A stretch of DNA of 64,000 bases, taken from an uncultured Methanosarcinales archaeon (GTDB lineage Archaea > Nanobdellota > Nanobdellia > Woesearchaeales > UBA10107). The DNA lies in contig OZ246410.1 in assembly GCA_965231065.1 (NCBI GenBank), forward strand, positions 42,396 through 106,395, read 5' to 3'. The notes under the pieces are model-generated. The model had not been told where the DNA came from. It ran no database searches and was given only the letters and a program-made list of their open reading frames with translations. The position numbers and the translations under genes are program-made. Below are positions 10,833 through 61,064 of the stretch, piece by piece (the first letter of the stretch is position 1; the number at the start of each line of letters is the position of its first letter).

Positions 10833-10836
10833 AGAA

Positions 10837-11151: not shown

Positions 11152-11165
11152 GGTGACTCAGGAAC

Positions 11166-11303: not shown

Positions 11304-11550
11304 GTTGTTCCTCTGTCTCTGCTTTTGATTCGTGCTTGACAACATATGCGGCGCCTGTGAATTTTGCGTTGCATGCATTGCAATGCCAGATTCCTGCAGC
11401 GACTCTTCGTACTTGTGATTTTGTGCAGTAAGGGCAGACCTGTCTCTTTCGCTGCTCTCGCTCAATATTAGAAATCTTTTCTCGGGTTGTTCTTCCGTAT
11501 CTGACGCCAAATCTGTTCGCTGCGCCTGCTTTCTTCTTTGCTTCTGCCAT
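11296..11550 (-). CDS. rpl37ae: Ribosomal protein eL43 (L37Ae)
   Basis: 84 aa with RFGVRYGRTTREK and CPYCTK...HCNACN. Confidence 0.85.
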   Translation of the reverse strand: MAEAKKKAGAANRFGVRYGRTTREKISNIEREQRKRQVCPYCTKSQVRRVAAGIWHCNACNAKFTGAAYVVKHESKAETEEQHG

Positions 11551-11579
11551 GGTGAATGTGAATTCTTATGCGTTTGAAA

Positions 11580-11685
11580 TGGGGCTGCCCGGATTCGAAC
11601 CGGGGTCACAAGGTCCCAAACCTCGAAGGATAACCAAGCTACCCCACAGCTTTACGCTGCTTTTAGGCTTACCAAAAGCAGTCCC
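11580..11685 (-). tRNA. tRNA-Pro(UGG) with a 32-nt non-canonical intron between positions 3 and 4
   Basis: By hand fold, exon 1 is GGG (11685-11683). Exon 2 (11650-11580) is GCUG UG GGGUAGCUUGGUUAUCCU U CGAGG UUUGGGA CCUUG UGAC CCCGG UUCGAAU CCGGG CAGCCCC A. After splicing the acceptor is GGGGCUG/CAGCCCC. Position 37 is G. The mature length is 74 nt and no CCA is encoded. Confidence 0.8.
11651..11682 (-). other. BHB (bulge-helix-bulge) tRNA intron, 32 nt
   Basis: The RNA reads UUACAG-UACG-GGA-CUGCUUUU-(GGUAAGCCU)-AAAAGCAG-CGUA-AAG-CUGUGG. That gives a 6-bp outer helix, a 4-bp central helix, two 3-nt bulges and an 8-bp inner helix. Confidence 0.75.
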
Positions 11686-11728
11686 GTACTGTAATTAGGA
11701 TAGCTTACAGCCTACACTTTCGAGAACG

Positions 11729-12340
11729 CTACCCATTTTTAAACCTATCGCTAAAGCCCAAGGAGGCCAAGAACTGCGGTATACTAGCTTGTCTGACCTT
11801 AAAATGCATGAATTTGGTAATCTTGCCGTCCTTTCTATTGTTACCTTTTGTGACCCAAATATCAGTGGTATCAACATTTAGCTCTTTTAACATATCTCTA
11901 AGGTCTTGCATGAATGCCTTGCCATTGTCAAGAATCATCTCGTTCTTTGCTAATCCGAATCTGATTCTTTTACTTCCGTTTTCTTTCCAAAATCCACCCT
12001 CACAGGCAAAGGCAACTTGCAGATATGATTTGCTAAATGTTGGATTTTCCTTTATCCATGCAGGAACTAAGAATTCTTTATTCACCTTGCTTCCTTTTGG
12101 TGTGCCAATCGAATGTAAAAATCTGGCAGTTTCACGATGGAATGCTCTATATTTTCTACTATGACCAAATCCTTGACCATCTTCATATCTTCCGACTAGA
12201 TTGAATTTTTGTTTGACCAATGATTTGAATTCCGACAGCATATCTTCTCTACTTGAAGAGAGATAAAAACATTTCAGATCTTCGGCAAGATGGCCGTCAA
12301 AAGTAAGGTAACTTACGATTCTTGTGGCGGCTTCGTCCAT
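11729..12340 (-). CDS. Free-standing double-motif LAGLIDADG homing-endonuclease-like protein
   Basis: The two motifs are IVSYLTFDGHL and YLQVAFACEGGFW, with the typical FLHSIGTPKGSKVNKEFLVPAWI segment between them. I place the start at ATG (cat 12338-12340). The track ORF begins at a GTG at 12376. Confidence 0.6.
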   Translation of the reverse strand: MDEAATRIVSYLTFDGHLAEDLKCFYLSSSREDMLSEFKSLVKQKFNLVGRYEDGQGFGHSRKYRAFHRETARFLHSIGTPKGSKVNKEFLVPAWIKENPTFSKSYLQVAFACEGGFWKENGSKRIRFGLAKNEMILDNGKAFMQDLRDMLKELNVDTTDIWVTKGNNRKDGKITKFMHFKVRQASIPQFLASLGFSDRFKNG

Positions 12341-14366: not shown

Positions 14367-16217
14367 ATGAAAATAAAAGAAAGAAAAATAACAGAAAAAA
14401 TAGAGAAATTGGTAGTGGACACATCAGTTCTCATAGAAGGATTAGTGTCTAAGAAGATACAGGAAAAGGAGATATCTCCAAAGAAGATATTCATCCATGA
14501 AGCGGTCATCGCTGAGCTTGAGAACCAAGCGAATTCAGGAAAAGAGATCGGCTACTTAGGATTAGATGAAATAAAGAAACTAAGACTTCTTGCAGAAAAA
14601 AATAAGTTTGAGATATCCTACACAGGAACCAGACCGAACGAATTCGAGATCCAACGGGCGAAATCAGGAGAGATCGATGCGTTGATACGAGAATTAGCGT
14701 ATCAGGAAAAAGCTCACTTCATAACGGCAGACAGAGTAAATGCTTTGGCTGCTGAAGCAAAAGGAATACAGACCATTCTTGTCGAGTTTGAGAAAGAATC
14801 AAGAGAACTTATGTTCGAGAAATACTTTGATGACACGACTATGTCGGTGCACATCAAGGAAAGCACAAAACCGGTCGCTAAAAAAGGAAAACCAGGCGAG
14901 TGGAGTCTTGTCGAAGTCGATGAAGAACTTGATGGCAAGACCATCGAGAAGATGGCGAAACAGATCGTCGAAGAAGCGACACGAAGACCTGATGCGTCCA
15001 TCGAAGTCGAACGGAAAGGATCGACCATCGTTCAACTAGGACGATACCGAACGGTCATCGTACGACCACCGTTCTCAGACGGATGGGAAATCACACTCGT
15101 ACGGCCAGTGAAGAAACTTTCATTGGAAGACTACAAGCTCAGCGAGAAACTGAAAGCACGATTGAACGGAAAAGCAGAAGGAGTCCTCATCGCAGGAGCT
15201 CCGGGCATGGGTAAATCAACATTCACTCAGGCGCTGACTGAGTTCTACGCAAAACAAAGCAAGATCATTAAGACAATAGAAGCACCACGAGATCTCGTTG
15301 TTCCTGATACAGTCACGCAATACGCGATTGGATTAGGAAGTTCTGAAGAGATCCATGACATCTTACTATTGTCAAGACCGGATTACACGATTTTCGATGA
15401 GATGCGAAACAAGGATGATTTTGAATTGTTCGCTGACCTGCGATTAGCAGGAGTCGGTATGGTGGGAGTCATCCACGCGACAAAACCGATAGACGCTATT
15501 CAAAGATTCATCGGCAAGATCGAGATGGGAGTGATCCCGCACGTCGTGGATACGGTCATATTCATCCAGAAAGGAACAGTCGCAAAAACATTCAGCATCA
15601 AGATGGAGATCAAAGTACCTGGCGGCATGACAGAAGCTGATCTGGCGCGACCGTGCGTCGTCATCAATGATTTCGAGACAGACAAACAGGAATACGAGAT
15701 CTACTCATACGGTAATGATACGGTCGTCGTTCCGATAACAGAGATCGCTGCGAAAGGAAGTCCGGTTCGGGAATTAGCGAAGATGGCTATCGAACGGGAG
15801 ATGGAACGATATGCAGATGAAGCTGAAGTCAGGATCGATTCAGACAATAAATTTACACTCTTTGTTCCGGAACATAATATCGCCTCGATCATCGGCAAAC
15901 AAGGAAAGAATATCGAGATGCTCGAGAAGATGTTCGGCATGAGCATCGATGTCCAGGAATTATCGGGAAAGACAACCGCGAAGAAGAAGCAGGGAGAATC
16001 AGTCTCATTCAAATCAGAATTCACCCACAAGAATGTGGTGTTGAAGATCGATGAGAGTTATGCAGGCAGAAATGTCAACATCTACATACGCGATGAACTG
16101 CTCATGACGGCCAATGTCGGCAAGAATGGCGAGATTAAGATCGGATCAGAGCATAAATTAGGAAAGACTCTGAAGAATGCACTGTCCTCAAAAGACAACG
16201 TTGAATTACGGATATGA
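14367..16217 (+). CDS. PIN-domain / PilT-like ATPase / KH-domain protein (archaeal COG1855 type)
   Basis: 616 aa. It has an N-terminal PIN-like KLVVDTSVLIEG, Walker A GAPGMGKST and a C-terminal KH-like IASIIGKQGKNIEMLEKMFG. Confidence 0.7.
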   Translation: MKIKERKITEKIEKLVVDTSVLIEGLVSKKIQEKEISPKKIFIHEAVIAELENQANSGKEIGYLGLDEIKKLRLLAEKNKFEISYTGTRPNEFEIQRAKSGEIDALIRELAYQEKAHFITADRVNALAAEAKGIQTILVEFEKESRELMFEKYFDDTTMSVHIKESTKPVAKKGKPGEWSLVEVDEELDGKTIEKMAKQIVEEATRRPDASIEVERKGSTIVQLGRYRTVIVRPPFSDGWEITLVRPVKKLSLEDYKLSEKLKARLNGKAEGVLIAGAPGMGKSTFTQALTEFYAKQSKIIKTIEAPRDLVVPDTVTQYAIGLGSSEEIHDILLLSRPDYTIFDEMRNKDDFELFADLRLAGVGMVGVIHATKPIDAIQRFIGKIEMGVIPHVVDTVIFIQKGTVAKTFSIKMEIKVPGGMTEADLARPCVVINDFETDKQEYEIYSYGNDTVVVPITEIAAKGSPVRELAKMAIEREMERYADEAEVRIDSDNKFTLFVPEHNIASIIGKQGKNIEMLEKMFGMSIDVQELSGKTTAKKKQGESVSFKSEFTHKNVVLKIDESYAGRNVNIYIRDELLMTANVGKNGEIKIGSEHKLGKTLKNALSSKDNVELRI

Positions 16218-17707: not shown

Positions 17708-18790
17708 ATGGGGGTCTTCAACGATATCTTACGGAGTGACGAAACACTATTCAAGAACGTCATAGCGCTGGATTACGATTACATACCGAAATCTCTGCCA
17801 TTCCGTGAGGACAAGCAGAAATATATGGCGACCTGTATTAATCCATTATTTCAAGAACGAAGCGGTCGTAATTTATTTATCCACGGACCACCGGGCGTCG
17901 GCAAGACGGTGGCGTGCAGACATGTTCTCAAGGAACTTGAAGATGAATATGATGAGGTCGAACCGATCTACATCAACTGCTGGGAACGCAATTCTTCCCA
18001 CAAGATCATGATGGAGATATGTGATCGACTTGGTTATAAGTTCACGCACAATAAGAAAACAGATGAATTATTTAAGATTGTCAAAGAGCTGCTGAATAAG
18101 AAATCAGTCGTGTTTGTGTTTGATGAGATCGATAAAGCAGAAGATTATGATTTTTTGTATTGGATCCTGGAACAGGTGTATAACAAATCAGTGTTTCTGA
18201 TAACGAATTATAAGGATTGGCTGCTCGATCTGGATGAACGCATCAAGTCTCGCCTGAACGCAGAAATAATGGGGTTCAACCCCTATACGCTTCCTGAGAC
18301 GCGTGAAATTGTGCGGCAGCGAATAGAATTCGCATTCAAGGAAGATGTCGTGCAGCAGGATGCGTTTGACTCGATTGTCAAGAAAACATACGATATGCAG
18401 GATTTACGGAAGGGATTGTATTTATTGCGGGAAGCAGGGACGCTTGCTGAAGAACGAAGCTTACGGAAAATCACGATCGAGCAGATCGCCGCAGCGATCA
18501 AGAAACTCGATGATTTCACGATCAATAAAGAAGACGGATTGGATGCGGAGGAGAAGTTTGTCTTTGAGCTTATCAAGAAAAATCCAAATCAGAAGACCGG
18601 TGAGCTGTATAAATTATTTTTGAACAACGGCGGAACTGCATCGCAGAAGACATTCACGCGAAAACTGAAGAAACTAGAAGAAGGTAAATTCATATCCATC
18701 GAGAAGAGCGGCGGTGGCCTGGATGGAAATACGTCAACGATACGATTAGCATCACGGCAGCCGACTGAACGGAAGCTCACTGAATTCTGA
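17708..18790 (+). CDS. cdc6: Orc1/Cdc6 replication initiator (copy 2)
   Basis: 360 aa with Walker A HGPPGVGKTV, Walker B VFVFDEIDKA and a C-terminal winged helix. Confidence 0.85.
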   Translation: MGVFNDILRSDETLFKNVIALDYDYIPKSLPFREDKQKYMATCINPLFQERSGRNLFIHGPPGVGKTVACRHVLKELEDEYDEVEPIYINCWERNSSHKIMMEICDRLGYKFTHNKKTDELFKIVKELLNKKSVVFVFDEIDKAEDYDFLYWILEQVYNKSVFLITNYKDWLLDLDERIKSRLNAEIMGFNPYTLPETREIVRQRIEFAFKEDVVQQDAFDSIVKKTYDMQDLRKGLYLLREAGTLAEERSLRKITIEQIAAAIKKLDDFTINKEDGLDAEEKFVFELIKKNPNQKTGELYKLFLNNGGTASQKTFTRKLKKLEEGKFISIEKSGGGLDGNTSTIRLASRQPTERKLTEF

Positions 18791-33296: not shown

Positions 33297-33383
33297 ATAG
33301 CTTTTAAAGGTACCGACATTCTTTTAAACGTTTTGGTATTGATTCAACAAAGGTTTATTAACGAAACAGCAATAATTGACTTT

Positions 33384-34676
33384 ATGCAAAAAAATTGGAA
33401 AATGAGCGGAAAAGGTTCTGCTCAGGTGATTGCAATTTCGTTTATTGCACTTGCCTTGCTTGGCATCGGTATTTGGACCGGCTATAAAGGCCACATCATA
33501 ATTGATAAAAATAAAATAGATTATCCTCCTTCCATAGACTACAAGAATCCCCAAACAACCATTCGTCTTTCGCCTATTGTGAACGGCAACCCGCCGTGTA
33601 ATAAATCTGGTCGTGTTACATTTGCTACACCATTTATGAACCCTAATGACCTTAAAGCGATCTGGCCGCTCGGTAGAACCGCGAATGACCACGTCACTCC
33701 GACTGACCACCAGTACTATATCACTACCGATGCTGCTAGGAAAAATGGTACTGTTCTTTATGCCCCCGCGGATGGGATTATCTTTGGCATCATCAAGGAT
33801 GATATCAGTGAAAAGATTCCTAATCTACCTGAATCTGAGCGCTTCACATATGGTATAGCGATCTCCTATAGTTGTACCCAAGCTTTAACATTCGCTGGCA
33901 TTGCTGAACTAGTACCAGAATTGAAGAAATTTGCTTCTCCTAACAATGCTGGAGCTAAGGATATAAATATTCCAGTCAAAGCTGGGCAAATGATCGGCAC
34001 AATACATAAGGGCATGGAAAGTTGGTTAATCGATGCCACTTCAAAACTGACAGGGTTTATTGACGACGGAGATTATCTAGATGAAAATTGGAAACCGTAT
34101 TCACACAGCCTGTTCGATTATTTTGTGCCAGCTTTGCGCGACCAATACAATGCCAAGTCACTACGCAAGGTTGAACCGTTTGGTGGCAAGATTGACTATG
34201 ATCTTCAGGGCAAGCTCATTGGCAATTGGTTTAAACAGGGAGTATTGCCGTACTATATGCGACAAACAAATTTTTGGCAAAATGAACTAGCCATCTTTTA
34301 CGATTATATCGAACCAGACCAAATTCGTGTTATGATTGGCCAGTTTGCCGACAGTCATCCAGGTAATTTTGGTTTTGATGTTGTTGGAAATGCTCCTGAT
34401 CCTGCCACTATCTCGGTTGCTTCGGGACTAATAAAATACTCGCTCGTTGATTACCTTTATGCCGACGAATCTGGCCTTACTATTGATGAAATCGGGATCA
34501 ATATTGATGAGATGTCTGGCGATAAAGTCTGGCATGTCCAAAACGAAAAGTCAGTTTGGGGCGTAGCGTTAGTCCAGATGATTGAAGACAGAAAAATAAA
34601 GTTTGAAGTCTTTCCTGGTAAAACAGTCGATCAAGTCGATGGATTTACTGAAAACGCTCAAATATATGAAAGATAA
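33384..34676 (+). CDS. N-terminally anchored or secreted protein, possibly a degenerate M23/LytM-like fold
   Basis: I place the start at MQKNWKMSGKGSAQVIAISFIALALLGIGIW (signal anchor). VLYAPADGIIFGI and IPVKAGQMIGTI resemble M23 barrel strands, but no HxH motif was seen. Confidence 0.5.
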   Translation: MQKNWKMSGKGSAQVIAISFIALALLGIGIWTGYKGHIIIDKNKIDYPPSIDYKNPQTTIRLSPIVNGNPPCNKSGRVTFATPFMNPNDLKAIWPLGRTANDHVTPTDHQYYITTDAARKNGTVLYAPADGIIFGIIKDDISEKIPNLPESERFTYGIAISYSCTQALTFAGIAELVPELKKFASPNNAGAKDINIPVKAGQMIGTIHKGMESWLIDATSKLTGFIDDGDYLDENWKPYSHSLFDYFVPALRDQYNAKSLRKVEPFGGKIDYDLQGKLIGNWFKQGVLPYYMRQTNFWQNELAIFYDYIEPDQIRVMIGQFADSHPGNFGFDVVGNAPDPATISVASGLIKYSLVDYLYADESGLTIDEIGINIDEMSGDKVWHVQNEKSVWGVALVQMIEDRKIKFEVFPGKTVDQVDGFTENAQIYER

Positions 34677-39121: not shown

Positions 39122-39505
39122 TTATTTCTTCTTCTGATTGAATACCGTATTGATGTCAATCACATATTTTCCTTCACCGATCTTAAAGATCAAAGGATCT
39201 TTCTTGAACAATCTGACTAGATCCAATTCAAACTTGCCTGGTTCGACGGAACGGATCGACTCGATATCTAAAATCACCGGTCGATCATCATCAGGACGTA
39301 ATTCGACCAGTTCGTACACTTCTTTCTCCATCTCTTTCTTCTCAGGCAGCGTCAAGTTTTTGATCGCTTCCAATGTCTCCTGATTCTGTCTCAGTTTCTC
39401 TTTCTTGACAAAGAAAAATATCTTAGCACCACACGAACATCCCTTTAAGATGATATCAGAACCATCATCATAGAATTTATTGCACCGGACACATTGGTGA
39501 GGCAT
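39122..39505 (-). CDS. Zn-ribbon protein conserved in archaea (recalled as DUF2072-like)
   Basis: 127 aa: MPHQCVRCNKFYDDGSDIILKGCSCGAKIFFFV. It is the last gene of a three-gene minus-strand operon. Confidence 0.6.
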   Translation of the reverse strand: MPHQCVRCNKFYDDGSDIILKGCSCGAKIFFFVKKEKLRQNQETLEAIKNLTLPEKKEMEKEVYELVELRPDDDRPVILDIESIRSVEPGKFELDLVRLFKKDPLIFKIGEGKYVIDINTVFNQKKK

Positions 39506-39510
39506 ATAAA

Positions 39511-39897
39511 CTACCTCCTTCGCTTCGGTTTCTCTTTGCTGAGCATCAACTGTATCTTTTCAGGATCTTTCTTGATCGCTTTGACGACCGATGCCGGACC
39601 GACGATCGTCAATCCTTGTCGATCTCCGAGAATCGCATCAATAAGATCGTTCTTGATCTTCGTCAAACCGACTTCTCTGCCGGTATGCGGATTGACCACT
39701 GCCAATTCAATGCCTTTGAATTCTTTGTTGATCTCTTCCATAGTGGCTTTGATCAGTTCTGTCTCTTCCTCTTTTTTCAAGCGACCTTGTAATAAAGCGA
39801 TCTTGTTCTCTTTCGCGACATTCAACAGCATGCGTATCCGGCCCAAAGAAGTCAATCCTTCTATTTTTGAATACGGAATCAGTTGTATTGTTACCAT
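39511..39897 (-). CDS. Conserved archaeal protein (recalled as DUF2073-like)
   Basis: 128 aa, lying between the GTPase and the Zn-ribbon gene with 3-5 nt spacers. Confidence 0.55.
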   Translation of the reverse strand: MVTIQLIPYSKIEGLTSLGRIRMLLNVAKENKIALLQGRLKKEEETELIKATMEEINKEFKGIELAVVNPHTGREVGLTKIKNDLIDAILGDRQGLTIVGPASVVKAIKKDPEKIQLMLSKEKPKRRR

Positions 39898-39900
39898 CGA

Positions 39901-40530
39901 TTAACCTACCAGCGCGAACAGCGCCTCATAGAAGGTGTCTATACCCTTCCCTTTTTTCGCTGACATCCCTATGACGTCATATTGAGGGAATGCAGACTGG
40001 ACTTTTTTTATGTTTGCTTTTTTCAGGTCTGTTTTGTTGGCGACAATCAGCACAGGGATGTCACGAGCAGCCAGATTGCCGATAACCGTGATATTGACCT
40101 GTGAGTACGGATCTTTTGTCGCATCAAGAACAACGACGACCGCATGCATGTTGTCAATCCACTTAATGGCTTCTATAACTCCTTTCGTCGCTTCTTTCGC
40201 ACGCTTCTTCGCAGATGCCTTATTCATGCCTGCTTTCAAGAATTCTTCGTAATCAATCTTCGTAGCGATACCAGGAGTGTCTGCGATCTGGAACATGAGC
40301 TTCCTGCCATCATGTTCTATCTCGACATCCTTCACCGCGACTGCACGTGTCTCGTGTGCGATCTCAGAAACTTTACCGATTTCCTGTCCGATCCAATCCT
40401 GACAGATCTTATTCGCTAATGTTGTCTTACCGGCATTAGGAGGGCCATAAAACCCTAGATTAAGCTGCTTTCGTGCAGAGAATATGTCCCTAAAAACCTT
40501 ATCTATGAACTTTTTGAAGATATCTAACAT
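39901..40530 (-). CDS. Small GTP-binding protein
   Basis: 209 aa with G1 GPPNAGKTTL, G3 DTPGI and G4 ANKTD. Confidence 0.75.
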   Translation of the reverse strand: MLDIFKKFIDKVFRDIFSARKQLNLGFYGPPNAGKTTLANKICQDWIGQEIGKVSEIAHETRAVAVKDVEIEHDGRKLMFQIADTPGIATKIDYEEFLKAGMNKASAKKRAKEATKGVIEAIKWIDNMHAVVVVLDATKDPYSQVNITVIGNLAARDIPVLIVANKTDLKKANIKKVQSAFPQYDVIGMSAKKGKGIDTFYEALFALVG

Positions 40531-40628: not shown

Positions 40629-41186
40629 ATGGACAAAAGAGTACAAGAGGACATCATTTCTGTGTTAAATCAGGCACTTGCATTGATACAAAAGCATGAT
40701 TTCAGCGAATTGAAGGAACTTTCTAACCATACGATCCACAATGCGTCTATCTTTCAGGACCAGGATTCTATACAGATCGCGGTCATTGTCTATTCTTTGG
40801 CGAAAATCATTGAGCGAGCAGAGCAGCAAGGCCAGACCATATCGATGAATGTGACCAAGACGATGGGAAATGCGCTTACATATCTCAGGGATGATGATGA
40901 ATCAAAGTATCATGATGAGATCAAGAAAGTATTGAAGCAGCTTTCTGAAAGCGACCAGCGGATTGTCATGTATGTACAGCAGGTTATCGAAAAAGCACAT
41001 ATTGTGAAAGGAGGTAATCTGTATCGCCATGGAATCTCCATGGGCAGAGCTGCTGAGATTCTCGGCGTCAACCAGTGGGATCTCATGAGTTTTGTCGGTA
41101 AGACTCGGATCGCTGATGAAGATGGCATACTCGGCAAGGTCAATGATAGATTGAGCTTCTCAAAAAAACTGTTCAAGGTACCATGA
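40629..41186 (+). CDS. Helical protein with a C-terminal UPF0175-like HTH (putative antitoxin-like or regulator)
   Basis: 185 aa from the ATG at 40629 (the track starts at GTG 40626). The C-terminus is HGISMGRAAEILGVNQWDLMSFVGK. The stop overlaps the next ATG (ATGA). Confidence 0.55.
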   Translation: MDKRVQEDIISVLNQALALIQKHDFSELKELSNHTIHNASIFQDQDSIQIAVIVYSLAKIIERAEQQGQTISMNVTKTMGNALTYLRDDDESKYHDEIKKVLKQLSESDQRIVMYVQQVIEKAHIVKGGNLYRHGISMGRAAEILGVNQWDLMSFVGKTRIADEDGILGKVNDRLSFSKKLFKVP

Positions 41187-41869
41187 GATCGATCATATTT
41201 GATGCAGGGCCGATCATCAGCCTGACGACGAACAACATGCTGTGGCTGCTCGAAAAACTGAAATTACGTTACGGCGGAGATTTTCTCATACCGCACGAGG
41301 TTGAGCTTGAATTAGTGCAGAAGCCTCTGGACATAAAACGATTCAAACTGGAAGCATTGGAAGTCAACCGTGAAATCAATAATGGCACTCTCAAAGTCGT
41401 CAATGATGTACGTGTCAAGAAACTAAAAGAAGAACTATTATCCATGATGAACAACTGCTTCATCGCCAAGGGAATGCCGATCAAGATCGTTCATCAAGGA
41501 GAGATTGCTGCAGTTGCCGCTGCATTGTTATATGATGCGGATGCGATCGTCATCGACGAGCGAACAACCAGGGAATTGATAGAGAATCCTGAAGGATTGG
41601 CTGAACTGATGAGCAAGCACCTCCACACGAACGTGGAAGTCGATCGGCAGCGACTGGCTGACATCAAAGAACGCATCGGCCACTTAAAAGTCATCCGTTC
41701 CATCGAGCTTGCGGTCATGGGTTATGAACTAGGATGGTTCGACAACTATCTGACGCATGACAAAGAGGCACGAAAGACTTTAATAGAAGCTATCCTTTGG
41801 GGCATCAAGATGAGAGGTGCGTCCATTTCACAGCAGGAGATTGACCGGATCGTGAAGATAGAAAAATGA
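41183..41869 (+). CDS. PIN-like nuclease domain protein (DUF3368/COG2405-like) with a C-terminal extension
   Basis: 228 aa. The acidic residues are IIFDAGPIISL (N-terminal Asp), HQGEIAAVAAALLYDADAIVIDERTTREL (Glu and Asp). This is longer than typical ~150-aa members. Confidence 0.55.
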   Translation: MRSIIFDAGPIISLTTNNMLWLLEKLKLRYGGDFLIPHEVELELVQKPLDIKRFKLEALEVNREINNGTLKVVNDVRVKKLKEELLSMMNNCFIAKGMPIKIVHQGEIAAVAAALLYDADAIVIDERTTRELIENPEGLAELMSKHLHTNVEVDRQRLADIKERIGHLKVIRSIELAVMGYELGWFDNYLTHDKEARKTLIEAILWGIKMRGASISQQEIDRIVKIEK

Positions 41870-42009
41870 TACAACCAATCTGCGACAGGTGCAAAAAAGA
41901 ATTGAAGGAATTTGGAGCGCTTCTCTTCAGTCCGCCGGAAGGCAAACAGGTGAAGAAATACCACATCTGCAGGGACTGCTATCGATTGCTTGAAAAAGAA
42001 GTACAGTAA
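41866..42009 (+). CDS. 47-aa Zn-ribbon-like protein
   Basis: An ORF absent from the track: MIQPICDRCKKELKEFGALLFSPPEGKQVKKYHICRDCYRLLEKEVQ (CxxC...CxxC). It has an ATGA overlap with the upstream gene and ends 3 nt before the herA-like ATG. Confidence 0.5.
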   Translation: MIQPICDRCKKELKEFGALLFSPPEGKQVKKYHICRDCYRLLEKEVQ

Positions 42010-42012
42010 CAT

Positions 42013-43527
42013 ATGAAAGGACAGGTTATTGGGGGAGATTACAGCAAAGTCATCGTCAGACAGAAGTCTGACGAGGATCTTGAGATAGGTGAACTGCTCG
42101 TCGCAGAATCAGGCGATGAGAAACTTCTTTTGCAGGTATATGATCTATTGTATGGCTCTCAGATCTCGCCGCAGAATCTTGAACTGATCTCTGGCATGAA
42201 GCTGGAAGAGAACACAGACTTCAAGATGATGGATTTACATTTACGTAACTACAAACTAGCGTTTCTGAAACCCCTGCTCAGTCTGAACAATTTCTCATTA
42301 TGCAAGACACTGCCAAAGATCTTCTCAGAGATACGGGAAGTCACCGCAGAAGATCTGAAAGGTCTGGAAAAGCCTAAGAATCCATTGAAATTAGGGTATT
42401 TACGTTCAGGATCAAAAGAATTGGACTTACCTGTGTATGTCGACGGCAAAGAAGTATTTGCGCACCACATCTTGATCACTGCGACGACCGGTCGTGGAAA
42501 GAGTAATCTATTGAAATGCATCCTGTGGGATCTGTTGGATAAGAACTATTGCAGTTCGTTGATATTAGATCCGCATGATGAATACTACGGCAGGAATGAA
42601 CTCGGATTGAAGGATCATCCGGCAAAAGAGAATCTGGTGTATTACACACCGAAGAATCCGCCTGCCGGCGCGAACACCTTCAAGATCAATGTGAAAGATC
42701 TGCTGCCTGAACACTTCTATGGTGTCTCTGATTTCTCAGATCCGCAGTGGCAGGCATTGTATCTGTATCGAAAACAATACGGCAATGGGTGGATCGAAGC
42801 AATCTTGTTGGAGAAACCAGTGCAGGGAATGGCATTCGATGAACGGACGACTGCCGTGGTAAAAAGAAAGGTCGCTTCAATCCTAAATATCATGTTTGAG
42901 AGTGATCGGTTTGTTTCACGCGGTGCATTCTCGATCAGCGTCGGTGAATCGACCGTGAGCAATATTTGCAATAATCTGGAGAACGGCAAGACTGTTGTGA
43001 TCGATACCTCTGTGTTTTCAGGTGATGCCGAGATATTAGTCGGTTCAGTAATTTGTTCTGAACTATTGAAGCGATATAAACGATACAAAGATGATGGAAC
43101 GCTAGATAAAAGACCGGTTGTTACTGTTGTTCTTGAAGAAGCGCCCCGTGTATTAGGAAAAGCTGTCTTGGAACGCGGACCGAATATATTTTCAACGATT
43201 GCGAGAGAAGGACGTAAGTTTAAAGTAGGATTGACTGCAATAACACAGCTGCCTTCATTGATACCACGAGAGATACTCGCGAACATGAATACGAAGATCA
43301 TATTAGGCATCGAGATGAAACCAGAACGCCAGGCGATTATTGATTCTGCCGCTCAAGACTTGAGCGAAAGTGATAGGAATATCGCTGCATTGGACAAGGG
43401 CGAAGCGATCATCACATCGAACTTCACACGCTTCGCAATGCCGGTCAAGATTCCTTTGTTCAAGACATTGGTACAGAATACGGTCCAGAAGAAGCTCAAG
43501 ACTGACTTTTCAGGCATTTCAGGATAA
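42013..43527 (+). CDS. HerA-type (COG0433/DUF87) hexameric ATPase with an N-terminal HAS-barrel
   Basis: 504 aa. It has the N-terminal barrel-like [33 protein letters not shown], Walker [13 protein letters not shown] and Walker [14 protein letters not shown]. Confidence 0.75.
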
Positions 43528-43559
43528 GGTTTTTATAGTAACGGACGGTACATAAGGAT

Positions 43560-43988
43560 ATGACTGAGACGGACAAGTTATTAGTGCTGAAGAGAAGAGA
43601 GATAGACCTCGTCAAGGCCGAGTACCTTAATCTGAAAAGAGCGATCGAACGCGCGTTGGAAGTCATTGAACATCAGCGCGAAGAAGATTTTCTGGTACAG
43701 AACCGTACGACATTATTGACGGGAATATTCGGTAAGCTCGATGAGATCATCAAGATCTGCGATGATGAGAAACGATTGGGCGGCATGAAGACCTATCAGA
43801 CACTCGCTATGCAGGTCAATCTGCTTTCATATCGGGCACGATTATATCGAAAATATTTTCTGGAGAGGACGATCAGCACAAAAGAACAGGCATATCATCA
43901 ATTCAGGAAAGTCATCAAGGAGTTCTTTGAAAGCAAGGTCGCGATCGCATTTGCGACGGTCATCGCAGAAGATAAGGTGGCGATCTGA
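43560..43988 (+). CDS. Hypothetical helical protein
   Basis: 142 aa, downstream of the herA-like gene. Its stop overlaps the next ATG by 1 nt. Confidence 0.5.
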   Translation: MTETDKLLVLKRREIDLVKAEYLNLKRAIERALEVIEHQREEDFLVQNRTTLLTGIFGKLDEIIKICDDEKRLGGMKTYQTLAMQVNLLSYRARLYRKYFLERTISTKEQAYHQFRKVIKEFFESKVAIAFATVIAEDKVAI

Positions 43989-44281
43989 TGGCAGAGATCA
44001 TTGGCTACAATACATTGGTACAAGCAGATGAAGATCTGGAAAAAGAGATAAAAGAAGCACTGGCTCAGAATAAATATCCAAAAGATCTGAAATTTCTGCG
44101 ATTTTTGAAACGGGCAAATGAATTGGATTATAAAAGAATCCATCACCACATGGATCTTTTGATACTTCAGATGAATATTTTCATCAAGAGAGGACAGTAC
44201 ACGACACATAAACAAGGCATCGATATCAAGATGAGGAAACAGAAATGGGAAACGTATTCGGATGAACTTAAGAACGGTTAA
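43988..44281 (+). CDS. Hypothetical small basic protein
   Basis: 97 aa. It is the last gene of the cassette. Confidence 0.45.
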   Translation: MAEIIGYNTLVQADEDLEKEIKEALAQNKYPKDLKFLRFLKRANELDYKRIHHHMDLLILQMNIFIKRGQYTTHKQGIDIKMRKQKWETYSDELKNG

Positions 44282-44820
44282 AGTTTTGCGTTGAGCTGAT
44301 ATTCATTTTTGCCGGTCATATAGGTTTCTCCAGTCTCTACATCGCCTTGCATAACATCATAGCGCTGATCTGATCGATAGGTGATGAGTTTTCTATTGCG
44401 AGAGCCGATGATAATCATGTCAAGCGTATTACCCTTTGGCAATGTCCTGTCGAATAACTTTCTCCGTTCATCCGGAACGACAATGCCTTTTTTTCGTTCA
44501 AAATCTGTTCCTTGGATGATGCCGTTGTTTTTATGGACGAGCTCAATCATCGGCAGATACTCTTTTAATACACATACATCCTTCAGCGCATCAAGTGTCT
44601 GGTTGGATTTTCTTTTGTATGCGGCTGCAGACGCTTCTGCAGTCATGGCTTCGATGAAAAGACGGACGCGTTTATTCACACGTTCTATGCGCAGCTCAAG
44701 GACCTTCTGTGGATTTTCTAAGTGCCATGACTTTGCATGGTTAGTGTAGAATGTAAGAAGATCAGTCTTATTGTGGAATGAGCCAAGAATGAGCTGCCAC
44801 GGAGATATGAGTTCTTTCAT
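44278..44820 (-). CDS. Hypothetical protein
   Basis: 180 aa. It is convergent with the cassette and divergent from mre11. No motif was recognised. Confidence 0.5.
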   Translation of the reverse strand: MKELISPWQLILGSFHNKTDLLTFYTNHAKSWHLENPQKVLELRIERVNKRVRLFIEAMTAEASAAAYKRKSNQTLDALKDVCVLKEYLPMIELVHKNNGIIQGTDFERKKGIVVPDERRKLFDRTLPKGNTLDMIIIGSRNRKLITYRSDQRYDVMQGDVETGETYMTGKNEYQLNAKL

Positions 44821-44921: not shown

Positions 44922-46118
44922 ATGCGTTTTACACACTTTTCTGACTGTCACATCGGCGGCTGGAGAGACGAAAAATTGAGCGAATTAGGCTTGAAGGCCT
45001 TCAAACAAGCTATCGAGGAGAGCATCTCCAAACATGTTGATTTTGTGCTTATCGCAGGTGATCTGTTCAACACGGCACTGCCTCCCATCGACAAGCTTAA
45101 GGAAGTCGTTATCGCTTTAAAGAAGCTGAAAACTTCTGACATTCCTTGTTATGTGATTCCTGGCAGTCATGATTATTCACCTTCCGGCAAGACCATGATC
45201 GATGTTCTTGAACATGCAGGGATGTTGGTGAATGTCTGTAAAGGAATTGTTGAGAATGATACTTTGAAGCTGAAATTTACTGTCGATCCTAAAACAAAAG
45301 CTAAGATCACAGGTATGATCGGCAAGAAAGGAATGTTAGACAGAAAATTCTATGAGAATCTGGACAGAGAGTCATTAGAAAAAGAAGATGGCTTCAAGAT
45401 ATTCATGTTCCATACTGCATTGACTGAATTGAAACCGAAAGAATTGGAAAAAATGGAAGCATCTCCTGTTTCTTTGCTGCCAAGAGGATTTGACTATTAT
45501 GCAGGCGGCCATGTGCACATCATCGAGCACAAAGATCTGGACGGACATAAGAATGTTGTATATCCTGGCGCTTTATTCCCAAATAATTTCAGAGAGATCG
45601 AGAACTTCAAGCATGGTGGGTATTATTTATTTGAAGACGGCAGAGTTACATGGAATCCTGTCATTGTGAAAGAAGTCGAATGTCTTCATTTCAATTGTGA
45701 TAATAAGACACCTGCTGAAGTCGAGAAAGAGATTCTGATGAAGATAAAAGAGGTTACGGTCAAGGATAAAATTGTGACTATGCGTGTCAAAGGTACTTTA
45801 TTTACCGGCAAGCCTACCGATATCGCGTTCAATGAGATATTCGGTGTGTTATACCACAAAGGAGCTTATTTTGTGATGAAGAGCACTTCATTGGTTGAGA
45901 CGAAAGAATTTGAGAAAGTTCAGACGACTGCTTCATCCATTGAGGAAGCGGAAGAGAAGGTGATTAAAGAGAATATCGGACAATCTACTCTTAAGAATGA
46001 AACTGAATTGATAAAGAGTTTAATGAAAGTCTTTTCTTTGGAAAAACAGGAAGGCGAGACGAAATATAATTTTGAGAAACGATTGATTGAGGAAAGCAAG
46101 AAGATTATTGAGTTCTAG
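44922..46118 (+). CDS. mre11: Mre11/SbcD-type calcineurin-like DNA repair nuclease
   Basis: I place the start at MRFTHFSDCHIGG (ATG 44922). The phosphoesterase motifs are FSDCHIGG, AGDLFN, IPGSHD and GGHVHI. Confidence 0.75.
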   Translation: MRFTHFSDCHIGGWRDEKLSELGLKAFKQAIEESISKHVDFVLIAGDLFNTALPPIDKLKEVVIALKKLKTSDIPCYVIPGSHDYSPSGKTMIDVLEHAGMLVNVCKGIVENDTLKLKFTVDPKTKAKITGMIGKKGMLDRKFYENLDRESLEKEDGFKIFMFHTALTELKPKELEKMEASPVSLLPRGFDYYAGGHVHIIEHKDLDGHKNVVYPGALFPNNFREIENFKHGGYYLFEDGRVTWNPVIVKEVECLHFNCDNKTPAEVEKEILMKIKEVTVKDKIVTMRVKGTLFTGKPTDIAFNEIFGVLYHKGAYFVMKSTSLVETKEFEKVQTTASSIEEAEEKVIKENIGQSTLKNETELIKSLMKVFSLEKQEGETKYNFEKRLIEESKKIIEF

Positions 46119-56565: not shown

Positions 56566-58836
56566 TTGGCAGACGAAAATAACTACGAGGTTCTTCATGA
56601 AGGAGAGGAGACTATTCTCCGCGTCAATGCAGAGAATTGGCTGACAGTCCCTTCATTAGAGGATGATCCCATCACCATGTCCAGGACTACGGACATGCTC
56701 ATCGAAGTTTCTCAGGCAACCAGGATCATCTATTCACAAAAACGTGATTATGAGTATGACTATCCGCAGACACGTATGCTGGTCGAGATCGCATCGCTGT
56801 ACAATAAGCTCATCAAGGAGAAAGATGTCATCAGTTATGAACGACTCGATATCGAACACGGTGATCGCTTCCTCAATACGAAATATGCGAAACTGAAAAA
56901 TCTTCTGTTTTCGCTGATGAAATCAGATCCGCTCGGATGCTATGTTGAACTTATCCGTATGCTGCGGGAAGAGAAAACGAGTCTGGAGAAATTTCAGGAC
57001 ATCAGAGCAGCGCCGTTCCAGCAAAAGCTCATACAGTTGCTTGTGTACGTCCTGAGTCTATTCGAAAAGACACGGCTCATCATCCTGGCAAAACCATATC
57101 TCGCAGGCTACAAACTTGGCGAGAGAGATGTCTACAAGAAATTATTCTCACCGACCATTAAGCCTGATTTCATGTACACGAAGCTCATGTCGACCTATCC
57201 GGTCGATGCCGAGGAACTCGATAACTATTCAGTCGACAACAGCGAAGTGAGTATTTTCAAGACACCAGATACCATTCAATATCTGTATCATCTGAGTCCT
57301 CCGGAATTCAGGCTGAGCGAAGATCATTATGAACTCTTGGACCTCGCACGAAGGATCATGGCAGAACACCAGCCGGGAAAAGAGGAATTCGCAGAACCAG
57401 AACGTATGCGTCAGGTGTTCGGGAATGTCGGCAGAGATCTTATCGAAGAGTTGGCGAATTTCAGGAACATCAGATTATCACAGGAAGATCTCAACGAACT
57501 CACACAGATCCTTGTCAGGTATACGATCGGCTTCGGACTCATCGAAGTGTTGCTCAGCGACGATAAGATCCAGGATGTCACCATCAACAGTCCGATGGGA
57601 CACATCTCAATCTTCGTCGTCCATGGAGACTGGGGAGAATGCAGAACCAACATCATACCGACGCCAGCAGAAGCAGAAAGCTGGGCATCGAAACTCAGAT
57701 TGATATCGAGCAGACCATTGGACGAAGCAAATCCGATCCTTGATACAGAGATAGAATTCCCCGGAGCACGTGCCAGAGTCGGTGTCATCGCGCCACCGTT
57801 GAATCCAACCGGACTCGCATACGCGTTCAGACGACACCGAGACAAGCCATGGACACTTCCTTTGTTCATCAAGAATCGTATGTTGAATTCATTAGCAGCC
57901 GGTTTGCTGAGTTTCCTCATCGATGGAAACAGAACACTCTTAGTGGCAGGAACACGAAGCTCAGGAAAGACTTCATTATTAGGCGCGGTATTGACAAGCA
58001 TCTTGAGAAAATACAGAGTCATCACGATCGAAGATACATTGGAGTTGCCCGGTAAAGCGCTGAGAGAACTCGGCTATAATATCCAACAGATGAAAGTCGC
58101 ATCCGCATTATCAAAAGGAACAACAGAAGTTTCTGCTGATGAAGGCATCAGAACGACACTGCGATTGGGAGATTCTGCATTGTTTGTCGGCGAGATCCGA
58201 TCATTGGAAGCGAAAGCATTGTATGAAGCGATGCGAGTCGGTGCATTGGCGAATGTGGTCGCCGGAACTATCCATGGCGATTCACCCTATGGTGTCTTTG
58301 ACCGAGTCGTCAACGATTTGGAAGTTCCGAGAACAAGTTTCAAAGCTACTGATATCATTGTCGTCGCGAATCCGATCCATTCCGCAGACGGGCTCCATAA
58401 ATGGAGACGAGTCACTTCAATTACTGAGATACGAAAGGAATGGGAACGCGATCCATTGGTCGAGCGGGGCTTTGTCGATCTCATGAAATATGACGCTGCG
58501 ACAGATCAGTTGGTACCGACAGATGCGTTAATCAATGGCGAATCAGATATCATCAAGAGTATCGCAGGCAGCGTACGGGAATGGGCAGGTAATTGGGATG
58601 CGGTCTGGGACAATATAGAACTCAGAGCAAAAATCGAGCAATCGCTCGTCGATTATGCTGAAAAGACAAAAGACTCTGATCTTCTTGAGGCGGAATTCTC
58701 CATCTTATCGAACGATGAGTTCCATAAGATATCAGAACAAGTCAGAGACGAAGTCGGTTCGTTGGACAGCAAGCTTATATTCTTCAGATGGAATGAATGG
58801 ATCAAGATCATGATCAAGAAACGAGGGAAAATCTAA
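56566..58836 (+). CDS. Type II/IV secretion-family ATPase (FlaI/PilB/VirB11-like) with a long N-terminal extension
   Basis: 756 aa with a TTG start. Walker A is AGTRSSGKTSLL, the Asp box / Walker B is FVGEIR, and the His box is AGTIHG. Confidence 0.8.
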   Translation: MADENNYEVLHEGEETILRVNAENWLTVPSLEDDPITMSRTTDMLIEVSQATRIIYSQKRDYEYDYPQTRMLVEIASLYNKLIKEKDVISYERLDIEHGDRFLNTKYAKLKNLLFSLMKSDPLGCYVELIRMLREEKTSLEKFQDIRAAPFQQKLIQLLVYVLSLFEKTRLIILAKPYLAGYKLGERDVYKKLFSPTIKPDFMYTKLMSTYPVDAEELDNYSVDNSEVSIFKTPDTIQYLYHLSPPEFRLSEDHYELLDLARRIMAEHQPGKEEFAEPERMRQVFGNVGRDLIEELANFRNIRLSQEDLNELTQILVRYTIGFGLIEVLLSDDKIQDVTINSPMGHISIFVVHGDWGECRTNIIPTPAEAESWASKLRLISSRPLDEANPILDTEIEFPGARARVGVIAPPLNPTGLAYAFRRHRDKPWTLPLFIKNRMLNSLAAGLLSFLIDGNRTLLVAGTRSSGKTSLLGAVLTSILRKYRVITIEDTLELPGKALRELGYNIQQMKVASALSKGTTEVSADEGIRTTLRLGDSALFVGEIRSLEAKALYEAMRVGALANVVAGTIHGDSPYGVFDRVVNDLEVPRTSFKATDIIVVANPIHSADGLHKWRRVTSITEIRKEWERDPLVERGFVDLMKYDAATDQLVPTDALINGESDIIKSIAGSVREWAGNWDAVWDNIELRAKIEQSLVDYAEKTKDSDLLEAEFSILSNDEFHKISEQVRDEVGSLDSKLIFFRWNEWIKIMIKKRGKI

Positions 58837-61064
58837 TGGCCTTGTCGCAGAAAGAGATCCAGGATCTGGTACAGAAATATACGAAGCGCGTCGAGACGCA
58901 GCTCAATGTACCGGTCGAATCATTCTCCCAAGTGCCAATCACCACAAAGGATTATCAGGAGTTCAGAAAACAATATCTACCGACACAACTGAGCTTTTAC
59001 GAAAAACTCTGCAATATGAGCGAGAAGATCATCAAGGTCGCTCCGGGACCGAAAGATCTGCCGAAGATCCAGATGGCGATCAGGACTGCGCATCTGAACA
59101 TAACACCGACCGGAGCATACAGCTTCGCGATGCTCGCGCCTACGTTAATCGCGCTCATCGGCACACTTATCAGCTTCGCTCTGTTCAATTCCTTCTTCTT
59201 CGTATTTTTCTTTTTAGCGACTGCCTTGATCCTATACAAACCTTTGCAGAATATGCCGAACTTCATCGCTGATTCCTGGCGACTGAAGGCGAGCAACCAG
59301 ATGGTACTCGCTGTCTTCTTCATGGTCACCTACATGCGTCACACCTCAAATATAGAACGTGCTATTGATTTCGCAGCCAATCATCTCAGCGCTCCCTTAT
59401 CTCTTGATCTCAAGAAAATACTATGGGATGTCCAGACAGAGAAGTTCGATACCGTCAAAGATTCGTTGGAAGCATACTTAGACTCTTGGAAAGTCTACAA
59501 CATGGAATTTGTCGAAGCGATGCATCTCATCGAATCATCATTGTATGAAGGCTCAGAGGATAGACGAATCGAACTGCTCGAGAAGTCACTTGAACTCATT
59601 CTTGAAGAAACGTATGAGAAGATGCTTCATTATGCGCAGAATCTCAAATCACCGATCACGATGCTGCACATGATGGGAATCATACTGCCGATCCTTGGTC
59701 TGGTAGTACTGCCGTTAGTCGTCAGCTTCATCGGATTTATCGAATGGTACCATCTCGCCGCACTCTATAACATCGCCTTGCCGATCCTGGTTTACTACAT
59801 CGGTAAAAACATACTGTCCAAACGACCGACTGGCTATGGACAAGGAGACACTTCAGAGACAAATCCAGGATTGAAGAAATACAAGAACATTGTCGTAAAA
59901 ACACTCGGAAAAGAAGTACTGATCAATCCTGCCGTCATCGCACTTCTGCTCGGTGGCATATTTCTCATCATCGGATTCAGCCCCATCATCATCCATACAC
60001 TATCACCCGGTTTCGATGTCATCTATGATGCCAGCGGCGGACCAGAAGGAACCGGCGGATTAGTCACCGTCAGCGACTCGCAAAGTTTCATAGGAAACTC
60101 AAAATATGCATTGCTCGACTACAAGATAAGCACATCGACAGACCCTGCGAAAGTCGGGAAGATAATCGGTCCCTATGGATTGGGAGCGACCATATTGAGC
60201 CTTGCCGTTCCGATCGCATTAGCACTAGCGATCGGTCTGTACTATAAATTCAGATCCCAGAATGTAATCAAGATACGAGAGAATACCAAAGCGCTTGAGA
60301 AAGAATTCGCCGCAGCATTGTTCCAGCTCGGAAATAGATTGGCAGACGGCTTGCCTGCAGAGATCGCGTTCGAGAAAGTGGCCAATACCATGGAGAATAC
60401 GGTCTCTGGTTCATTCTTCAAAGCGATCTCAGCAAATATCAGAAGATTAGGCATGGGTGTCGAAGAAGCGATCTTCAATCCAAAGAAAGGTGCATTGTTG
60501 GCTTTCCCTTCAAGCGTCATCGAGAGTTCGATGAAGGTCCTTGTCGAATCATCGAAAAAAGGACCCGTCATCGCATCGAAAGCTGTATTGAGTGTCTCGA
60601 AATACATCAAAGAGATCCACCGCGTCAATGAACGACTGAAAGATCTCATGGCAGACATCATCTCATCTATGAAATCACAGATTGCGTTCCTTACACCCGT
60701 CATCTCAGGTATCGTGATCGGTATCACTTCGATGGTCAGCTCAATCATCGGAAAACTAGGAACTTCACTTGCAAAATCAGCCACTGCAGCACAAGCGCAG
60801 GCAGGACAATTAGGCGGATTGTTCGGAGATACGATTCCGACATACTACTTCCAGATCATTGTTGGTTTCTACGTAGTGCAGATCATCTACATCATGACGA
60901 TCCTGTCAAATGGTATTGAAAATGGCGAAGATAAATTGAATGAAGAATATCTGCTTGGCAAGAATATGATCAGCAGCATACGATTGTATTGCATCACTGC
61001 ATTGATCGTCATGCTGGTGTTCAATGTCATCGCAGCATCCATACTGACGACACCGACAGGATAA
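58836..61064 (+). CDS. FlaJ/TadC/PilC-like polytopic membrane platform protein
   Basis: About 742 aa from the ATG at 58836 (TAATG overlap with the ATPase stop). The track ORF starts at 58797. It has many TM segments separated by helical cytoplasmic domains. Confidence 0.7.
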   Translation: MALSQKEIQDLVQKYTKRVETQLNVPVESFSQVPITTKDYQEFRKQYLPTQLSFYEKLCNMSEKIIKVAPGPKDLPKIQMAIRTAHLNITPTGAYSFAMLAPTLIALIGTLISFALFNSFFFVFFFLATALILYKPLQNMPNFIADSWRLKASNQMVLAVFFMVTYMRHTSNIERAIDFAANHLSAPLSLDLKKILWDVQTEKFDTVKDSLEAYLDSWKVYNMEFVEAMHLIESSLYEGSEDRRIELLEKSLELILEETYEKMLHYAQNLKSPITMLHMMGIILPILGLVVLPLVVSFIGFIEWYHLAALYNIALPILVYYIGKNILSKRPTGYGQGDTSETNPGLKKYKNIVVKTLGKEVLINPAVIALLLGGIFLIIGFSPIIIHTLSPGFDVIYDASGGPEGTGGLVTVSDSQSFIGNSKYALLDYKISTSTDPAKVGKIIGPYGLGATILSLAVPIALALAIGLYYKFRSQNVIKIRENTKALEKEFAAALFQLGNRLADGLPAEIAFEKVANTMENTVSGSFFKAISANIRRLGMGVEEAIFNPKKGALLAFPSSVIESSMKVLVESSKKGPVIASKAVLSVSKYIKEIHRVNERLKDLMADIISSMKSQIAFLTPVISGIVIGITSMVSSIIGKLGTSLAKSATAAQAQAGQLGGLFGDTIPTYYFQIIVGFYVVQIIYIMTILSNGIENGEDKLNEEYLLGKNMISSIRLYCITALIVMLVFNVIAASILTTPTG

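Follow-up and report, generated by a model that had tools for sequence, protein, structure and literature searches.

Known systems and the locus examined

In archaea where the system has been characterised, DNA ends are prepared by Mre11-Rad50 and a hexamer of HerA feeds the DNA to NurA; the genes form a herA-mre11-rad50-nurA operon, as in Sulfolobus and Pyrococcus, with a bacterial counterpart, NurA-HerA-Mre11-Rad50, in Pontibacillus. HerA-family ATPases also stand beside putative nucleases in the anti-phage systems SIR2-HerA, DUF4297-HerA and TdpAB. Helix-turn-helix (HTH) proteins of the UPF0175 family (COG2886) precede DUF3368 PIN-domain proteins (COG2405) in VapBC-like modules, with which we group the PADLOC candidate system PDC-S70, and PIN folds are encoded with or beside motors driven by nucleoside triphosphates in archaeal PINA, bacterial PhoH2 and yeast Nmd4-Upf1. 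Here, we analyse a locus that touches on each of these, namely six co-directional open reading frames (ORFs), g1 to g6, found in the ORF listing on the plus strand of a 64-kb stretch of contig OZ246410.1 (assembly GCA_965231065.1; hereafter, the window), in which a HerA-type gene (g4) is preceded by an HTH gene (g1) and a PIN gene (g2). A first-pass annotation of the sequence had proposed a single six-gene nuclease-translocase system. We think it probable that the stretch is instead a composite in the core chromosome of a Woesearchaeota (DPANN) archaeon, made up of an ordinary herA-mre11 pair, an adjacent enlarged VapBC-like pair (g1-g2) and three lineage-specific small ORFs (g3, g5 and g6), rather than one six-gene machine.

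Set against the repair operon, the locus is alike in that its HerA is nearest to the canonical protein, that Mre11 lies directly downstream in relatives and that NurA and Rad50 exist in the lineage; it differs in that nurA and rad50 are dispersed with only herA-mre11 linked, that the PIN/HTH pair precedes herA, and that in the window the operon is broken by lineage-specific ORFs. The g1-g2 pair shares with VapBC-like modules the HTH-then-PIN order, a 4-nt overlap, the PIN fold with its acidic residues and similarity to PDC-S70, whereas both of its proteins carry extra domains, fall below or near Pfam thresholds in the window and appear to be vertically inherited in the core chromosome rather than patchy and mobile. 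The anti-phage systems resemble the locus in placing a HerA-family ATPase beside a putative nuclease, but no Sir2, DUF4297 or TdpB partner and no defence island is present here; that Sir2 and DUF4297 effectors are lacking had already been noted in the first-pass annotation, and none occurs among the neighbour domains. In contrast to PINA, PhoH2 and Nmd4-Upf1, PIN and motor are here separate genes, their linkage is facultative and the association is known from genes alone. Judged from sequence, HerA and Mre11 each add a member to a known family, and g1-g2, of the UPF0175/DUF3368 kind, is novel in its extra conserved domains, its core-genome inheritance and its apparently ancestral link to herA-mre11. 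DPANN genomes are tiny; this PIN/HTH pair, with two lineage-specific domains, is kept beside HerA-Mre11 across hundreds of related sequences.

HerA and its link to Mre11

The g4 gene (42013–43527, +, 504 aa) is predicted to encode a hexameric translocase ATPase of the HerA family. Its product matches the HerA central domain DUF87 (PF01935) at 1.7e-28 (100.7 bits against a cut-off of 23.2) and has both Walker motifs, A at residue 158 (TTGRGKS) and B at residue 374 (LEEA), and on these points the HerA-type assignment of the first-pass annotation is borne out; the HAS-barrel (PF09378) that it also described is matched weakly (E 0.06, with a score of 13.9 bits where the cut-off is 25.2). Scores against the NCBIfam equivalog models lie below their cut-offs (102.7 bits vs. 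800 for HerA_Thermprot and 89.5 vs. 970 for helicase_HerA), and by these thresholds g4 is best described as a divergent family member and not an equivalog. The best-matching solved structures are canonical archaeal HerA proteins (4d2i at 2e-27 and 9x1l at 4e-23), whereas the HerA chains of the SIR2-, DUF4297- and Tdp-associated anti-phage systems match far less well (1e-9 to 8e-4). At least 569 relatives occur in GTDB genomes. A tblastn search of plasmids with g4 returned bacterial HerA proteins at 25–30% identity inside annotated operons, namely NurA-HerA-Mre11-Rad50 in Pontibacillus (HerA about 30% identical) and NurA-HerA in Picosynechococcus, and the family assignment is confirmed because these plasmid relatives sit in annotated NurA-HerA operons. 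By all these matches, g4 appears to be the lineage's ordinary HerA.

A Mre11 homologue, overlooked in the first-pass annotation, begins 1.4 kb downstream of g4 (44922–46118, +, 398 aa counted from the conserved start). It matches Metallophos at 1.4e-15 and the NCBIfam model Mre11_Pyroc at 1.5e-26, with model positions 1–399 of 438 aligned and the score below the equivalog cut-offs, and its best solved structures are those of Pyrococcus furiosus Mre11 (1ii7/4hd0, about 1e-22). Gene order was compared in two samples, one anchored on HerA (80 GTDB genome loci from the at least 569 relatives) and one anchored on g2 (80 metagenome loci from at least 517 relatives), together with a few long contigs; individual loci carry L numbers below. 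Mre11 lies downstream of HerA in 40 of 48 relatives, which makes it the most strongly conserved HerA neighbour, and the gap between the two genes is −4 to +1 nt in 10 loci and at most 127 nt in 16 of 50. The ATPase is thus of the housekeeping type found beside mre11, which it abuts or overlaps in those 10 loci. By analogy with characterised archaea, HerA and Mre11 would be the lineage's double-strand-break end-processing genes, with Mre11-Rad50 preparing DNA ends, the HerA hexamer feeding DNA into NurA, and nurA and rad50 encoded at other loci. One HerA subclade has neither g1-g2 nor Mre11 within 7 kb (L036, L063, L064, L070, L072, L077, L083 and L084); the neighbours scanned in L036, L063, L072 and L083 include a signal-peptide peptidase and a metallo-beta-lactamase-fold protein, and the gene may there follow a different order or have been relocated.

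NurA and Rad50 in the lineage

The first-pass annotation recognised no NurA near g4 and considered a resection machine without NurA, with the PIN protein taking over as the nuclease of HerA. As far as the window is concerned its observation stands, since neither NurA nor Rad50 was found in the 64 kb, and Pfam scans beside about 94 HerA genes showed no NurA; one of these scans, of 101 neighbour representatives, reported the 25 commonest families and could therefore miss single matches, and the NurA of L022 was in that batch without being shown. This reading, which the abutment of g2 and HerA in several lineages also favours, was the one that we favoured at first. It was dropped after a search seeded with annotated plasmid NurA genes found NurA in L022 and L045, the only scanned HerA genes with NurA among their neighbours, and then 729 relatives. 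In L022, NurA (984–1994, −) is divergent from and adjacent to HerA, and in L045 (12870–13796, +) it lies 3 kb past Mre11, on a contig that also carries g1-g2, HerA and Mre11. The 729 relatives, recovered with the L022 protein, share 42–75% identity; among those listed, most carry PF09376 and several are named NurA from a Woesearchaeota or Nanoarchaeota archaeon. These proteins are about 340 aa long, and their genes usually stand alone in housekeeping contexts away from herA-mre11 (including L169 and L170). NurA of the canonical type is widespread in the lineage and is therefore not replaced by the PIN protein; at lineage level, these comparisons largely refute the idea of a machine lacking NurA, and we give it hardly any credence.

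Rad50 was seen once among about 1.6 Mb of related sequence, as a 683-aa protein with AAA_23/SMC_N and a zinc hook in L156. Proteins of 901 and 905 aa between HerA and Mre11 in L038 and L052 were considered as Rad50 and rejected, as they have no Pfam match and no Rad50 motifs. HerA is linked, then, to mre11, and to nurA in L022 (adjacent) and L045 (nearby), and not to rad50. The lineage appears from these searches to hold the complete HerA/NurA/Mre11/Rad50 set, of which only herA-mre11 is still linked, and this dispersal of nurA and rad50 is useful to bear in mind when the repair capacity of DPANN genomes is annotated. Our literature searches returned nothing relevant on Woesearchaeota with HerA, Mre11 or Rad50, or on DPANN with NurA.

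The PIN protein and its helix-turn-helix partner

The g2 gene (41183–41869, +, 228 aa) encodes a predicted PIN-domain nuclease of the DUF3368/VapC type. An AlphaFold2 model made with 51 homologues (pLDDT 91.8) has VapC PIN toxins as its top Foldseek matches (probability 1.0, target-normalised TM 0.6–0.74); Nmd4 bound to Upf1 is also among the fold matches, NurA is absent from them, and the lineage's true NurA genes (about 340 aa, PF09376) encode proteins distinct from g2. The PIN-like identity given in the first-pass annotation is therefore upheld, with a VapC-type fold, intact acidic residues and no NurA match. Of the three outcomes which that annotation had named as telling against its system, a NurA or non-nuclease fold for g2 did not occur, and the other two, namely genes unlinked in relatives and a housekeeping HerA beside mre11, were both found.

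Residues E43, D125 and E126 are invariant in the 51 homologues, and D7 and E107 are kept in at least 90% of them; these acidic residues were assigned to the canonical four PIN positions by inspection. The full invariant or near-invariant set comprises D7, E43, E57, E107, D125-E126, R130, R172-S173-E175, W206, K209 and G212, those from R172 onwards forming a second conserved block within a C-terminal extension that is helical and about 90 aa long. The protein matches the PIN models of PDC-S70 at 1.3e-8. A precomputed Pfam table lists DUF3368 (PF11848) for the window protein and most homologues, marked as weak in L001, and hmmscan at E ≤ 0.1 gave no family for the window's g2. From the model and the conserved residues, g2 is probably an active PIN nuclease.

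The partner gene, g1 (40629–41186, +), encodes 185 aa, or 186 aa if the start is placed at 40626. Residues 1–122 form a helical bundle modelled with a pLDDT of about 90, an addition of some 120 aa relative to UPF0175-type proteins; within this bundle, the invariant motif SNHTIHNASIFQD reads LSNHTIHNASIFQDxDS over the alignment of 51 homologues. The C-terminal HTH is conserved as HGISxxRAAEILGxxQWxLMxxVGKT. Residues 126–185 are modelled with low confidence, which is typical for antitoxin regions that fold on their partner. The likeness of this C-terminus to UPF0175, drawn in the first-pass annotation, survives in weak form: the match to PF03683, at E 0.012, scores 15.7 bits where the family threshold is 27.9 and covers residues 134–162 only, and the PDC-S70 partner model is matched at 1e-3. 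On these scores the link is one of resemblance and not of membership, and a fold search of g1 against the Protein Data Bank (PDB) gave generic helical bundles only, with no significant match.

The two genes are an obligate pair. In 56 of the 57 loci with enough flank g1 is upstream of g2, and the two reading frames share 4 nt in 83 of 113 pairs. The sole g2 homologue without g1 upstream is that of L156 (7995–8681), which lies 1 kb upstream of the short Rad50 of that locus (9701–11752). In one subclade, g1 is preceded on its own strand, at a distance of 39–140 nt, by an RNase HII gene, so that the order before HerA is RNase HII-g1-g2 (L035, L040, L058, L065, L089, L104, L105 and L152). We found 506 relatives of g2, which among the matches listed align over their full length at 43–71% identity and of which every named source is Woesearchaeota or Nanoarchaeota; no relative occurs on 72,556 plasmids or in 50,697 phage records. 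No paper found in our literature searches joins DUF3368 with HerA or covers the g1-g2 pair.

These data bear on whether g1-g2 might simply be a selfish addiction module, a type II toxin-antitoxin of the ordinary VapBC-like sort, placed beside HerA by chance. The gene arrangement of such a module is present, with the HTH gene upstream, the PIN gene downstream, the reading frames overlapping by 4 nt and both products homologous to UPF0175/DUF3368-type pairs. The patchy, mobile spread expected of such modules is not seen, however: the pair is lineage-wide and absent from plasmids and phages, it occurs as one copy per locus with conserved synteny in all related loci examined, which is atypical for mobile toxin-antitoxins, and both proteins are much larger than their canonical counterparts and carry conserved extra domains. 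We consider a selfish module improbable. Within the composite reading, g1-g2 would be a vertically inherited, translationally coupled, enlarged VapBC-type pair, in which the HTH and tail of g1 most likely bind and restrain the PIN domain of g2 in the manner of an antitoxin, and the N-terminal bundle of g1 may sense a signal or dock a partner.

A role in defence, as a HerA-scaffolded nuclease system against viruses or plasmids with the PIN protein as effector and three small accessories, was also put forward in the first-pass annotation. In its favour, three of the products match PADLOC models, g4 those for HerA (best 4e-26) and g1 and g2 those of candidate PDC-S70, and the content of the HerA/Mre11 spacer turns over rapidly among loci. 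However, the window is core chromosome and encodes two Cdc6/Orc1 proteins, aIF2, eRF1, SerRS, RtcB, CDC48, GatD/E, TruD, TGT and AspRS; the locus lies in a conserved, syntenic part of it, between oapABC and gatB/aspS throughout the lineage, and not in a variable island. The full-length relatives of g2, confined to one lineage where named and syntenic, fit vertical inheritance, unlike the patchy occurrence of defence genes; none is found on plasmids or phages, the small proteins of the locus are unconserved and have no PHROG matches, and g4 is much nearer to canonical repair HerA than to the anti-phage chains. A defence function is accordingly very unlikely in our estimation, and the result removes the false lead of a new HerA-nuclease system.

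Gene order across relatives

The recurring order in the two samples is oapC-oapB-oapA(−) / g1 g2 / variable gap / HerA / variable gap / Mre11 / gatB(−). The g2 gene is upstream of HerA in 29 of 49 HerA-anchored loci, and HerA follows within 4.5 kb of g2 in 10 of 22 g2-anchored loci, so that g1-g2 and HerA are neighbours in only about half; where they are adjacent, the gap is −10 to +81 nt in 10 of 44 cases. With HerA after g2 in about half of the loci, and with g3, g5 and g6 missing from nearly all of the about 165 related loci, the six genes are unlinked in relatives and the single six-gene system of the first-pass annotation does not hold. Tight g2-HerA junctions nevertheless occur across HerA lineages as divergent as the whole set (59–100% identity), and L014 is tight throughout. 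Since these junctions are spread over divergent HerA lineages, a compact g1-g2-herA-mre11 operon was probably ancestral and was later loosened by insertions. The pair was probably once co-transcribed with herA-mre11, and clearly it would also work without an adjacent HerA; g3, g5, g6 and a 180-aa antisense ORF would be lineage-specific fillers inserted into the ancestral string.

Whether the pair serves HerA and Mre11 is a separate matter. It could be a functional accessory of their end processing, a PIN nuclease gated by g1 that joins the HerA translocase in acting on DNA ends, flaps or RNA-DNA hybrids, as an addition to NurA and not a substitute for it. The VapBC-like pair would then be a fifth, lineage-specific component of DNA-end processing in Woesearchaeota, with HerA, Mre11 and the unlinked NurA, and a core repair operon would have taken in and domesticated a module of toxin-antitoxin type. 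The four genes are co-directional, and 4-nt overlaps at both g2/HerA and HerA/Mre11 recur in several divergent lineages, as expected of an ancestral operon; in one subclade g1 is preceded by RNase HII at 39–46 nt, L156 has Rad50 at 1 kb from its g2 homologue, and a cyanobacterial plasmid carries a NurA-linked HerA whose 3' end is overlapped by an unrelated PIN gene. There are precedents for PIN domains that are fused to, or act as partners of, helicases or ATPases; the fold matches include Nmd4-Upf1, and the window itself encodes a PINA-like protein. On the other hand, no HerA is present within 4.5–8 kb in about half of the g2 loci, unrelated opposite-strand genes often intervene between the pair and HerA, and synteny covers the region as a whole (oapABC, gatB and aspS included), which makes conserved order alone a weak argument. 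In addition, g1-g2 remains intact, with its catalytic residues invariant, where HerA has been deleted in frame (L004) or is absent from the locus (L001 and L002, in which g1-g2 is present without HerA nearby). An accessory role of this kind, and with it the fifth component, is in our view rather unlikely, though better founded than a selfish or a defensive one. If true, it would mean that a toxin-antitoxin-like module was recruited to housekeeping DNA repair, and a pathway for which thermophiles have been almost the sole subjects of study would gain a component.

The deletion in L004 (contig ERZ25039512 contig_81788) is seen as a 28-codon ORF at 8684–8770, in which HerA residues 1–16 are joined in frame to the last 11; this remnant indicates that HerA was deleted there. 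Its start overlaps the g2 stop by ATGA, and g1, g2 (with all its invariant residues) and Mre11 are intact. Either this organism can do without HerA, or it has a second copy, or the contig is misassembled.

The cyanobacterial case is L167, on plasmid NZ_CP014001 of Picosynechococcus sp. PCC 73109 (2435–6130), where NurA-HerA is followed by a 153-aa PIN gene, with 14 nt of overlap at the HerA stop, and then by a 75-aa ORF. A phmmer search of the loci gave no match between this PIN protein and g2, and it is therefore a second, apparently independent PIN gene coupled to a NurA-linked HerA; alternatively, it may be an inserted toxin-antitoxin module.

Several points weigh against the composite that we prefer. 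The UPF0175 and DUF3368 assignments lie below or near the family thresholds for the window's own g1 and g2. NurA and Rad50 are documented at the level of the lineage, and the window is 64 kb of a 774-kb contig. The ancestral operon is derived from distance clustering of HerA and not from a rooted species tree. Gene content, folds, conservation and gene order can be read from the data, whereas all activities, the inhibition of g2 by g1 and any contact with HerA are deduced from them. Finally, g3 may be a genuine lineage-specific subunit and not a filler, given its two CxxC pairs and perfect coupling on both sides.

Junctions and small genes of the spacers

The six genes and their junctions are as the first-pass annotation described them. 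Read from the sequence, g1/g2 and g2/g3 overlap by ATGA, g3 and g4 are separated by 3 nt (TAA-CAT-ATG), g4 and g5 by 32 nt, and g5 and g6 are coupled by TGATG; the G+C content is level across the locus. By eye, the 32-nt g4/g5 spacer contains a TATA-like TTTTTATAG, and therefore g5-g6 may be transcribed from a promoter of their own.

The g3 ORF (41866–42009, +, 47 aa), situated between g2 and HerA, has two CxxC pairs, in agreement with the zinc-ribbon-like mini-protein reported in the first-pass annotation, and was not called by the gene caller of the source collection. Of 123 loci, only the window and L015 have a mini zinc-ribbon ORF directly after g2. No g3 intervenes in L004 (67% identity in g2), where the stop of g2 and the start of HerA overlap directly. 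The ORF is thus lineage-specific, and its wider relevance is doubtful.

The HerA/Mre11 spacer of the window holds g5 (43560–43988, +), a 142-aa all-helical protein, g6 (43988–44281, +, 97 aa) and the antisense ORF (44278–44820, −, 180 aa). The g5 family is rare and fast-evolving and comprises seven representative clusters among 1.84 billion proteins; g5 has no Pfam, PADLOC or PHROG match, and its one relative among the loci (L029, 11246–11707) lies directly before Mre11. Neither g6 nor the antisense ORF has a detectable relative among the related loci examined, to which the search for g6 was confined. Elsewhere, the genes in the gaps are mutually unrelated and often on the opposite strand, and include GGDEF, DNA methylase, radical SAM, CorA and deoxyhypusine synthase genes.

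In many loci, the ORF right after HerA on the same strand encodes a highly divergent all-helical protein of 140–300 aa (for example L007 8555–9376, L009 7777–8679, L028 8726–9526, L031 4045–4785 and L005 1283–1744), and many of these proteins end in ...AA, ...RA or ...VA. They may form one fast-evolving family that includes g5. A hidden Markov model (HMM) search that started from g5 and its L029 relative brought in none of the other post-HerA ORFs, and a pairwise comparison of g5 with the L005 ORF reached only E 0.03. A 471-aa protein upstream of HerA in L047 matches nothing in Pfam or the PDB. Ten loci encode a small, very basic protein in which a unit of about 35 aa (KVAKVGVKKxSGYLYFVDKxGDVSCAKMxRG) is repeated twice in tandem, in many cases ahead of a long lysine/alanine-rich tail. 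It lies between g2 and HerA in L009 (5859–6122), L038 (2016–2459), L044 (6487–6897), L051, L066, L074, L075, L078 and L081, and occurs also in L042 (8544–8789, −); it might bind nucleic acids or serve as a chromatin protein in DPANN archaea.

Chromosomal surroundings

Named homologues of g1, g2 and g4 come almost all from Candidatus Woesearchaeota or Nanoarchaeota (DPANN), with a few metagenome-assembled genome (MAG) records labelled otherwise, as uncultured Methanosarcinales, Aminicenantes or Thermoproteota. Contigs with the typical Woesearchaeal synteny include many from MAGs titled uncultured Methanosarcinales archaeon (L005, L011, L012, L017, L039 and others) and one titled Candidatus Aminicenantes bacterium; such labels are probably wrong, or the bins contaminated.

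Elsewhere in the window, two proteins have no Pfam match, one of 755 aa (58797–61064, +), whose gene comes after that of a 756-aa T2SSE-type ATPase, and one of 447 aa (33333–34676, +). A 616-aa protein (14367–16217, +) combines PIN, T2SSE-type ATPase and KH domains, the architecture of the archaeal Holliday-junction ATPase PINA, and represents a second PIN-plus-motor combination in the window. Upstream of g1 and divergent from it are the origin-associated protein genes oapC-oapB-oapA (39122–40530, −), identified by an OapB Pfam match, by the OapC/OapB annotation of relatives and by conserved synteny. These genes and the two Cdc6/Orc1 genes (2910–4091, −, and 17708–18790, +) all fall within 40 kb, and a replication origin is probably nearby.

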